Shown: positions 437 through 6,068 of the stretch, one piece after another
Layout of the letters: each line of letters begins with the position of its first letter
Numbering within the stretch: position 1 is the first letter of the stretch
DNA from: Enterobacteria phage WA13
Sequence record: NC_007821.1
DNA: 6,068 bases
Reading direction: 5' to 3' (one strand)
Program-made: the position numbers and the translations under genes
The notes under the pieces: generated by a model
Seen by the model: only the letters and a program-made list of their open reading frames with translations
Told to the model about the DNA's origin: nothing
Database searches by the model: none

Positions 437-526
437 ATGGAAACTGTTGTCGGAAAATTTATTGCTTTGGCTGTTGTTGCTCTTATGCTGTATGGAATTG
501 CCCGCTTAATTCGGAGGTTCCCGTGA
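437..526 (+). CDS. Hypothetical small hydrophobic peptide (29 aa, METVVGKFIALAVVALMLYGIARLIRRFP)
   Basis: ATG at 437 with GGAG (427-430) 6 nt upstream, TGA at 524-526. Single predicted membrane-spanning stretch followed by a basic RLIRR tail. Codons mostly T-ending (act gtt gga.. gct gtt gtt gct ctt). Same frame as ORF 65..433, one codon after its stop. Below the 60-aa cutoff of the supplied ORF track. Confidence 0.3.
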   Translation: METVVGKFIALAVVALMLYGIARLIRRFP

Positions 527-699
527 AGTATTTTAGTCTTGTGGATGAACATTATGCTTATTGCCCTGATACGAGGATTTTGCACATTACTCGTAGCCGT
601 GTTTCTGACCCTCGTTATGAGCGTCGCTTTCTTACTGATGAGGAACATTTTGCACTTTTGGATTGGTTGAAAAATCGCCCAACTTATATTAATTCTTGA
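523..699 (+). CDS. Hypothetical protein (58 aa), GTG start
   Basis: GTG at 523 with GGAGG (513-517) 5 nt upstream, overlapping the stop of the preceding small ORF (GTGA, 523-526). No in-frame ATG exists, so the start must be non-ATG. TGA at 697-699. Very strong third-position T bias (roughly 60% of codons by hand count). Product MKYFSLVDEHYAYCPDTRILHITRSRVSDPRYERRFLTDEEHFALLDWLKNRPTYINS. Confidence 0.35.
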   Translation: MKYFSLVDEHYAYCPDTRILHITRSRVSDPRYERRFLTDEEHFALLDWLKNRPTYINS

Positions 700-725
700 C
701 AGGCCTTTAAAATACCCTCTATATT
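696..725 (+). promoter_or_regulatory. Sigma70-type promoter upstream of gene A (PA)
   Basis: TTGACA (696-701), 18-nt spacer, TATATT (720-725). Position corresponds to the phiX174 PA promoter just upstream of gene A. Confidence 0.5.
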
Positions 726-5090: not shown

Positions 5091-6068
5091 ATGTTAGGTG
5101 CCGTTGTAGGTGGTATTGCTTCAGCCTTAGCTGGTGGAGCCGCTTCTAAGCTGTTTGGTGGTAAACCTGCCGCTCAAGCCGCTACCGAGTCCTCTGGCCT
5201 TTCTAATGGTCAAGGCGTTATTGGTATGGATCAAGATGCTGGTATTCAGTCAGCTATTCAGGGCTCTAATGTTCCCAATGGTCAGATTCCTGCCCCCACG
5301 CAGACTGGTGGCGTTATGTCTGATGCTAAAAATATGATTAAGAATGCTGGTAAAGATTTGCTTGATGGCGTTATGACCGCTGGAAGTGATCGCATTAAGC
5401 AGGCATTGGTTGATAAGTTGAGTGGTAACGATGCAAAGAAACAAGGACAAGCAACCCGTGATTACTTGGCTGCGGCCTTCCCTGAGCTCAATGCATGGGA
5501 ACGTGCTGGAGCTGGTGCTTCCGGTGCCGGATTGGAGTCTTCCGGCCAGAATCAGCAAAAGGAGTTGATGCGTATGCAGCTGGATACTCAGAAGGATATT
5601 GCTAAGATGCAAATGCATAATAATTTGCAGATTGCTGGTATTCAGTCCGCTACTTCTCGCGAGAATACGAAGGATTCAGTTTATGCTCAGAATGAGATGC
5701 TTAAATTTAATCAACAGGAGTCACAGGCACGCGTTGAGTCTATCCTCGCCAACACTGACCTTACGGCTAAACAGGCTGCCCATGAAATTATGAGAATGGC
5801 CCTTACTCGTGCTCAGGAGACTGGTCAGCATTTAACTAATAGTCAGATTATGGCATTGGAGAAAAAAGTTTATGCAGAAATCGGAAAAATTCATCAAGAT
5901 ACTCAAAACGCTCGTTATGGTAGCTCTCAAGTTACTGCTGCGGCGAAAGATGTTACGAATATGATTACCGATGCCACTTCTGGTGCTGCCGATTGGGTCT
6001 CTCAACAGTGGAATTCTTTCTTTAAAGATGGCAAGTCTAATGGTATTCCCCTCAATACCAGAAAATAA
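5091..6068 (+). CDS. H: Minor spike / DNA pilot protein H
   Basis: 325-aa ORF with AAGGAG 8 nt upstream. Matches phiX174 H (M.GA..GGIASALAGGA.SKLFGG, RDYLAAAFPELNAWERAGA, IAGIQSATSR.NTKD.VYAQNEML, QNARYGSS). The stop codon TAA is the last three bases of the window. Confidence 0.92.
   Translation: MLGAVVGGIASALAGGAASKLFGGKPAAQAATESSGLSNGQGVIGMDQDAGIQSAIQGSNVPNGQIPAPTQTGGVMSDAKNMIKNAGKDLLDGVMTAGSDRIKQALVDKLSGNDAKKQGQATRDYLAAAFPELNAWERAGAGASGAGLESSGQNQQKELMRMQLDTQKDIAKMQMHNNLQIAGIQSATSRENTKDSVYAQNEMLKFNQQESQARVESILANTDLTAKQAAHEIMRMALTRAQETGQHLTNSQIMALEKKVYAEIGKIHQDTQNARYGSSQVTAAAKDVTNMITDATSGAADWVSQQWNSFFKDGKSNGIPLNTRK

Follow-up and report, generated by a model that had tools for sequence, protein, structure and literature searches.

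The microviruses of the phiX174 group serve as model genomes and are frequently presented as completely annotated, with 11 genes. The present report concerns a candidate for a further gene in one of their relatives, a 58-codon open reading frame (ORF), here called ORF3, at positions 523–699 of the 6068-nucleotide genome of Enterobacteria phage WA13 (NC_007821.1); the whole of this stretch of DNA is referred to as the window, and the ORFs, signals and hairpins given coordinates below lie on its plus strand. Tight gene packing is typical of microvirus genomes, as seen in the overlapping genes A/B/K/C and D/E, and promoters that lie under coding sequence are usual in the family, with the phiX174 promoters PB and PD lying inside gene A and gene C, respectively. 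In phiX174 and G4, gene H is separated from gene A by a spacer of only ca 60 nucleotides (nt), which contains no gene and in which the order of elements is a −35 element 4–9 nt after the H stop codon, a −10 element, a GC-rich hairpin right after the −10, a U-run and the ATG of gene A. The annotated transcription start of phiX174 (3962) lies inside this hairpin. The hairpin is itself the leaky rho-independent terminator TH, which ends long late transcripts after gene H, similar leaky terminators being found after genes J, F and G (PMC3335065).

The window comprises the complete genome of an alpha3-like microvirus (genus Alphatrevirus), of which bases 1–760 are 99.6% identical, and gene H 99.9% identical, to coliphage WA45. 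It begins directly after the gene H (5091–6068) stop codon, and the ATG of gene A is at 759, such that the H–A spacer comprises bases 1–758. A spacer of ca 760 nt is found in all alpha3-like phages, as against the ca 60 nt of phiX174 and G4, and genomes of the alpha3 clade are larger by ca 700 nt. The order of promoter, hairpin, U-run and ATG is the same in the window (at 696–761) as in phiX174 and G4, but the window differs from both in having ca 690 nt with three ORFs interposed, the last of which ends in the −35 element. Most records treat this extra DNA as an intergenic spacer. What emerges from the comparisons below is that it holds three ORFs under purifying selection, and that ORF3 is, with good confidence from comparative sequence evidence, a genuine translated small gene, the third in a compact, alpha3-like-specific three-gene cassette which fills the enlarged spacer.

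Coding evidence for ORF3

ORF3 runs from a GTG start to a TGA stop at 697–699. A preliminary description, made from the sequence alone, held that its frame contains no ATG at all, which is true of the window sequence; further GTG or TTG codons occur in frame only at 541, 580, 658 and 667. It is likewise the case, as that description stated, that third-position T is highest in ORF3 among the three spacer ORFs (0.62, as compared with 0.53 in ORF1, 0.45 in ORF2 and 0.51 in gene F), the value being 0.25–0.26 when the stretch is read in either of the other two frames. Chance ORFs of ca 58 codons are frequent in the T-rich window genome, as seen from its ORF list. Necessarily, therefore, ORF length alone proves nothing, and the significance of ORF3 rests on comparison with its relatives.

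Spacers for this comparison were gathered from 14 GenBank genomes, from metagenome and run-assembly contigs found via the protein, and from IMG/VR contigs, which after alignment gave 28 distinct related spacers. All 28 come from contigs of ca 6.0–6.3 kb in which gene H precedes and gene A follows the spacer, and all share the same layout of three ORFs, of 120–129 (or 154), 28–30 and 58 codons. The ORF3 frame is open in every one of them, while both other plus-strand frames carry stops in 28/28 and the minus-strand frames across ORF3 carry stops in 18–28 of the 28. Averaged over pairs, the proportions of synonymous and nonsynonymous differences in ORF3 (pS and pN) are 0.326 and 0.067, giving a pN/pS of 0.20, whereas the other two frames over the same stretch give 0.95 and 1.67. 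When changes are placed by parsimony on a neighbour-joining tree of the spacer sequences, 56, 31 and 151 of them fall at codon positions 1, 2 and 3, and the ratio of synonymous to nonsynonymous changes is 138/73 in the ORF3 frame, as against 50/170 and 23/194 in the shifted frames; the sequences behind these pairwise and parsimony statistics are related and probably recombinant, such that the counts are not independent events, which tells to some degree against the case for coding, but the contrast between frames, as read from the alignment, is large despite this. The codon-wise comparison of the spacer, which the preliminary description had named as a check on its proposal of a real coding frame, accordingly supports coding, and the combination of in-frame stops with conserved nucleotides, which it had named as the contrary outcome, appears in none of the relatives (0/28 with an in-frame stop).

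An internal control is available in the form of a 123-codon ATG ORF at 138–509, which lies in another frame and overlaps ORF1 and ORF2. Although its frame is intact in the window, stops interrupt it in 25 of the 28 relatives, and it is therefore a chance ORF. One record, MG945254 (from dog faeces), marks ORF1 together with this ORF, the latter as ‘similar to hypothetical protein’, and does not mark ORF3; the annotation of 138–509 is, on the same comparative grounds, spurious.

The start codon and the overlap with ORF2

ORF2 (437–526) is a 29-codon ORF, METVVGKFIALAVVALMLYGIARLIRRFP, with its stop codon at 524–526. The GTG of ORF3 lies over this TGA, forming the 4-nt stop–start overlap GTGA at 523–526 to which the preliminary description had drawn attention. 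The same description regarded the GTG start as obligatory, which turns out to be so for the window genome only, as the first codon of ORF3, at an identical codon position, is GTG in 18 of the 28 spacers and ATG in the other 10 (NC29, ID32 and the L015–L023 group). In the window the start is preceded at 5 nt by the Shine–Dalgarno sequence GGAGG (513–517), which is placed inside the last codons of ORF2, and a purine-rich motif is present 5–7 nt upstream of the start in 28/28. Its form varies with the start codon: spacers with GTG have GGAGG at 5 nt in 17 of 18 cases (phiK has GAGG), and those with ATG have AGGA at 6–7 nt or AGGAG at 6 nt. In other words, a strong Shine–Dalgarno sequence accompanies the weak GTG and a weaker one accompanies ATG, which suggests that the level of expression is tuned. 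In the alpha3 record M25640, ribosome-binding sites are marked ahead of each of the three ORFs, that of ORF3 lying at the equivalent of 513–518.

The NTGA overlap is found in 27 of the 28 spacers, as GTGA in 18 and ATGA in nine, ID32 having a 1-nt gap. In the ATG group the junction has acquired a 3-nt insertion and several substitutions, yet the 4-nt overlap has been recreated, and these junction changes alter the C-terminus of ORF2 from RRFP to SRTLK, or to SRT in ID32, with its length passing from 29 to 30 or 28 codons. That the overlap is recreated after remodelling of the junction is an argument for selection on the overlap or, at the least, on very close spacing, and on this sequence evidence translational coupling between ORF2 and ORF3 is likely. 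In this regard, the locus is like the coupled ATGA/GTGA gene pairs of phage and bacterial operons, which it resembles in the 4-nt overlap, in the tight packing of the three ORFs and in the position of the Shine–Dalgarno sequence inside the upstream coding sequence. It is unlike the classic coupled pairs in that no masking RNA structure was found at the ORF3 start, where a small hairpin pairs 491–524 and the 101-nt fold is no more stable than shuffled sequences (z +1.19). The earlier proposal of coupling through GTGA is supported indirectly by retention of the overlap through a remodelled junction, and the classic masked-start form of coupling is unsupported. Under the coupling proposed here, ribosomes would start at GTG 523 using the GGAGG at 513–517, and this initiation would probably be aided by ribosomes that terminate ORF2 at the overlapping TGA (termination–reinitiation coupling), such that the output of ORF3 would be tied to that of the membrane peptide ORF2.

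A variant of this junction is seen in protein P0003, from an ENA contig of 761 nt, which is 78 amino acids long and joins the N-terminus of ORF2, METVIGKFIALAVVALMLYGISH, in frame to ORF3 from residue 5 onward, the ORF2/ORF3 junction having been lost in a short deletion. Either the assembly is at fault or this is a natural variant in which ORF3 is tethered to the membrane peptide.

Alternative explanations

Beyond the non-independence of the counts, several points weigh against the description of ORF3 as a translated gene coupled to ORF2. Literature searches covering any alpha3-like phage found no transcript, ribosome-profiling or protein data; in 12 of the 13 GenBank genomes other than that of Escherichia phage Lilleven, none of the three ORFs is annotated; and a 2026 account of a new alpha3-type phage gives the 11 classical coding sequences and no others (PMC13029530). 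Moreover, a hairpin at 26–60 and the U-rich tract that follows it may halt many transcripts before they reach the cassette, in which case expression could be very low. For coupling in particular, the masked-start form is unsupported, as no structure in the start region exceeds that of shuffles, and the GGAGG, being at ideal spacing, could drive initiation of ORF3 independently.

This last point forms the basis of a serious alternative, according to which ORF3 is a real gene that is translated independently from its own Shine–Dalgarno sequence, the GTGA overlap being a matter of compaction only. Along with the ideal 5-nt spacing of GGAGG and a start that is not masked by stable structure, this explanation can draw on ID32, which has the 1-nt gap in place of the overlap and still keeps ORF3, and on the constraint on the ORF2 protein, which is weaker (pN/pS 0.61, calculated from few changes). 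A 1-nt gap still permits reinitiation, however, and an overlap of compaction only sits less easily with its retention in 27/28 spacers, including those in which a 3-nt insertion lengthens ORF2 to 30 codons and restores ATGA, and with the packing of ORF1, ORF2 and ORF3 by a 3-nt gap and then a 4-nt overlap, which resembles that of a coupled operon. On this balance, independent initiation is a possible but rather doubtful account of ORF3 expression, and coupling to ORF2 is the explanation preferred here.

It is improbable that ORF3 is the relic of an inserted cassette, which is now drifting or is held only through its overlap with the region upstream of the promoter. In favour of a relic are the absence of a homologue beyond the clade and of an assignable function, together with the C-terminal variants of ORF3 (70 amino acids in phiK; 56 codons in contig L026, after a late frameshift) and the frameshifts of ORF1 in the records of old laboratory strains (St-1; alpha3 X60322). 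The resequenced alpha3 (DQ085810.2) lacks the frameshift of X60322, however, which makes a sequencing error its probable cause. In addition, ORF3 is exactly 58 codons long in 26/28 spacers, it retains 24 invariant residues among 10 cluster representatives while its proteins diverge by up to 22% among relatives, and the purifying selection upon it is comparable to that on ORF1 (pN/pS of 0.20 and 0.26, respectively, over pairs), all of which speaks against a drifting remnant.

The locus might also be thought of as a conserved non-coding DNA or RNA element, such as a promoter-upstream element, a replication or packaging signal or a structured RNA, in which the open frame is fortuitous. The ORF3 stretch is indeed directly upstream of the gene A promoter, its mean pairwise nucleotide identity over the 28 spacers is high (0.88), and ORFs of this length are common by chance in the genome; moreover, the H–A region of phiX174 belongs to the ‘reduction sequence’, a clone of which inhibits superinfecting phage (PMC8310164). 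The form of the variation in ORF3 nevertheless makes this very improbable, in that it is substantial (pS 0.33), concentrated at third positions and accompanied by a low pN/pS in the one frame, the other frames being apparently unconstrained. The frame is open throughout, while the longer chance ORF nearby is broken in 25/28; a search of Rfam for an RNA element gave no match, and there is no unusual stability around the ORF3 start; and the exchange of GTG for ATG, together with the matching change in the Shine–Dalgarno sequence, is hard to explain without translation.

Initiation at the internal GTG 541 (codon 7), which is in frame in the window and would give a product of 52 amino acids, the length of a JGI gene call (P0008) that begins at the equivalent valine, is scarcely credible, since many relatives have GTA or GTT as codon 7, which is thus not a conserved start, codons 2–6 (KYFSL) retain their amino acids through synonymous changes (AAG/AAA, TAT/TAC, AGT/AGC and CTT/TTG/CTA), the conserved Shine–Dalgarno sequence stands 5–7 nt ahead of codon 1 and not of codon 7, and 10 relatives have ATG at codon 1.

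The ORF3 stop codon and the gene A promoter

The TGA of ORF3 falls within TTGACA (696–701), the putative −35 element of the gene A promoter, which is followed after 18 nt by TATATT (720–725), the putative −10 element. This pair matches the sigma-70 consensus at 11 of 12 positions and is the only such site returned by a promoter scan of positions 1–900. The position of the stop codon inside the hexamer had been noted in the preliminary description, and it is a conserved feature, TCTTGACA with its in-frame TGA being kept in 26/28 spacers. The −10 TATATT is conserved in the alignments save for a deletion in NC35. Between the −10 and the ATG of gene A is a hairpin with a U-run (726–756), the counterpart of the phiX174 terminator after gene H, of which the hairpin at 726–750 is conserved with one compensatory pair (UA to AU).

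From this arrangement it had been proposed that coding and promoter constraints are superimposed. The arrangement is real, but conservation and model confidence are lowest over the last four residues of ORF3, from which it follows that the double constraint is light; moreover, no direct interplay between the two is expected because it is mRNA that ribosomes translate and duplex DNA on which the promoter is recognised. On the simplest reading, the stop in the −35 reflects genome compaction, with no regulatory interaction: a cassette of ca 690 nt would sit between the H stop and the promoter unit, and ORF3 would run on until the consensus −35 supplies its TGA. Indeed, the non-ATG start, the 4-nt overlap and the stop in a promoter hexamer are all instances of ordinary genome compaction and call for no new mechanism.

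Individual records depart from the common arrangement. In phiK (L010, X60323) the hexamer, at 693–698 of its spacer (window 696–701), is TTGGCA, which makes for a weaker −35 and for loss of the ORF3 stop, such that ORF3 has 70 codons and its end lies within the hairpin; this may be a real variant or an early-1990s sequence error. In NC35 (L014, DQ079872) ca 30 nt are deleted at ca 703, equivalent to 703–732 of the window, and with them are lost the spacer between −35 and −10, the −10 TATATT itself and the terminator hairpin's 5′ arm, while TTGACA and the ORF3 stop stay.

The upstream end of the cassette and its expression

Just after gene H lies a 15-bp hairpin (26–60), the 3′ arm of which holds the ORF1 Shine–Dalgarno sequence AGGAG (51–55). 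Its folding energy is −20.8 kcal/mol (z −4.7), 0/200 shuffled sequences fold as well, and it is conserved, with GU/GC/AU variation at one pair. The sequence after it is U-rich, and the hairpin is followed by UCUUUAUUAUG. The hairpin is possibly a terminator, an attenuator or a translational gate for the whole cassette, and as such it may limit both read-through and the translation of ORF1, which suggests that the cassette is expressed at a low level. No good promoter match occurs in the spacer other than that of gene A, and for this reason late transcripts that continue beyond gene H are the probable source of cassette mRNA. Such transcripts would probably carry the cassette and end at 726–756, as those of phiX174 do at TH.

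A second TTGACA is found at 4–9, 4 nt after the H stop, where it is conserved without a usable −10; the promoter scan called no promoter there. Its offset from the H stop equals that of the gene A −35 of G4 (TTGACT, 4–9 of G4). Each of the two TTGACA copies in the window is followed by a hairpin, a U-rich tract and, ca 60 nt on, an ATG (that of ORF1 at 65 and that of gene A at 759), and this paired layout suggests that the −35 was the insertion site of the cassette or that the cassette duplicated it. A more extensive relationship, in which a duplicated promoter–leader flanks the cassette, was considered and rejected, as only the hexamers and the layout match and the alignment of 10–64 with 702–758 is no better than that of shuffles (p 0.30).

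The predicted ORF3 protein

The product of ORF3 has a mass of 7.2 kDa and a near-neutral pI, and its tryptic peptides include ILHITR and YFSLVDEHYAYCPDTR. An AlphaFold2 model, calculated from a shallow 10-sequence alignment, has a mean pLDDT (predicted local distance difference test score) of 77 and places strands at residues 2–6, 9–14, 19–22 and 34–36 and a C-terminal helix at 39–50. In other words, ORF3 is predicted to be a soluble protein in which four beta-strands are followed by a C-terminal helix and which has a conserved basic loop, TRSRVSDPRYERR; the invariant residues cover much of this basic stretch and the helix motif EEH-AL-DWL.

The modelled fold bears a weak, partial resemblance to OmpR/ToxR-type domains. 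The comparison with the winged helix of OmpR, PhoB and ToxR covers the N-terminal beta-sheet and helix alpha-1, and differs thereafter in that ORF3, in what is a moderate-confidence model, ends after that helix with no recognition helix and no wing. None of the 10 ORF3 members matches the OmpR/PhoB family (PF00486) in Pfam at E ≤ 10, and hhalign gives a probability of 0.2% for ORF3 against ToxR. Assignment of ORF3 to the OmpR/PhoB family was rejected, there being no sequence link and neither recognition helix nor wing within 58 residues.

Searches for homologues place ORF3 within the alpha3-like phages. Neither the single ORF3 sequence nor all 10 members gave a match in Pfam at large, and no match was found in PHROGs, PADLOC or NCBIfam, which cover phage and anti-phage defence families. 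A word-indexed search of 5.8 billion proteins and a tblastn search of 50,697 phage records found no ORF3 homologue outside the alpha3-like phages, and the viral predicted structures of BFVD contained its own family only (the orthologue in Escherichia phage Lilleven). Likewise, no match to the cassette was obtained by blastn in 5,426 complete E. coli genomes, hence no host-derived source was found. In a profile search of 1.84 billion representatives the sole hit beyond the family was P0011, in which five repeats of ADEEELRLAKWLDNQATFVRSQ, which we take to be helicase-associated (HA) domain repeats, match ORF3 residues 37–58 with a summed E of 6e-6; the similarity is read as a shared helix motif, and homology to P0011 or the HA domain was not accepted, ORF3 itself having no Pfam match. 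Three further candidates were set aside. These are an ABC-transporter ATPase that shares EHLALLDWLK, the only match in a scan of GTDB genomes, and amicoumacin kinase in a search of PDB sequences (E 0.01 over 30 residues), both of which were put down to chance, and a paralogy of ORF3 with ORF1, for which hhalign gave 16 columns at E 0.048 with the helix aligned to strands.

As to function, our low-confidence guesses are that ORF3 is an accessory protein beyond the 11 canonical genes, binding either nucleic acid or a partner protein, and that it is made together with the membrane peptide ORF2. In phiX174, the genome region that corresponds to the site of the cassette is the source of the ‘reduction’ effect, i.e. 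inhibition of superinfection. A bolder proposal is that the alpha3 clade maintains, at the tail of its late transcripts, a conserved accessory cassette for phage–phage competition, host takeover or counter-defence, in which ORF3 would be a new small fold binding nucleic acid or RNA polymerase; as a whole this is speculative and, in our estimation, unlikely.

Annotation status and implications

ORF3 is not newly seen, having been predicted before in Lilleven, and its ribosome-binding site is marked in M25640. In the Lilleven record (MK629527) all three ORFs are listed as hypothetical proteins, and ORF3 (QBZ71504.1) is the same gene as in the window, of 58 amino acids, 88–90% identical, located after a 29-amino acid ORF and before gene A; the entry is an automatic or curator prediction without function. 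A library of viral structures holds a predicted structure of 58 amino acids and 90% identity under UniProt A0A4D6DYU6, which is taken to be the Lilleven protein. Independent gene calls on metagenome microvirus contigs give the same layout of 122, 29–30 and 58 amino acids. No study of the spacer ORFs was found in the searchable literature, the coverage of which did not extend to Rokyta et al. 2006 and Kodaira et al. 1992.

With three ORFs under purifying selection in the spacer, one of them starting at GTG in many members, the reference annotations of at least ten species need correcting, and spacer mutations that appear in experimental-evolution and synthetic-genome work are not to be treated as non-coding. 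The cassette also offers a small and tractable set of orphan genes in which knockouts are easy to build.

ORF1 and ORF2

The two ORFs that precede ORF3 are packed in the same manner. ORF1 (65–433) starts with ATG and encodes an acidic protein of 122 amino acids (pI 4.8) without a close structural match. ORF2 follows after a gap of 3 nt, and its Shine–Dalgarno sequence, GGAG at 427–430, is within the last codons of ORF1. The ORF2 product, from an ATG start, is a hydrophobic membrane peptide of 29 amino acids with a basic C-terminus. It has 28–30 codons in all 28 relatives, and its changes at codon positions 1, 2 and 3 number 52, 10 and 32, second positions being the most conserved.

Some records differ in ORF1. 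In that of St-1 (L009) a 1-nt deletion at ca 230 shifts the frame of ORF1, leaving 94 amino acids, and in the old alpha3 record X60322 ORF1 is recovered by tblastn in two pieces, the ORF being intact in DQ085810.2. These frameshifts could be sequencing errors or decay in laboratory stocks, and they may explain why early papers called no ORF1 gene. At its other end, ORF1 carries ca 32 extra N-terminal residues in P0028 and P0029, from contigs of 6193 and 6303 nt, for a total of 154 amino acids; the start of the cassette is therefore different in those genomes, where the region of the 26–60 hairpin may be coding.

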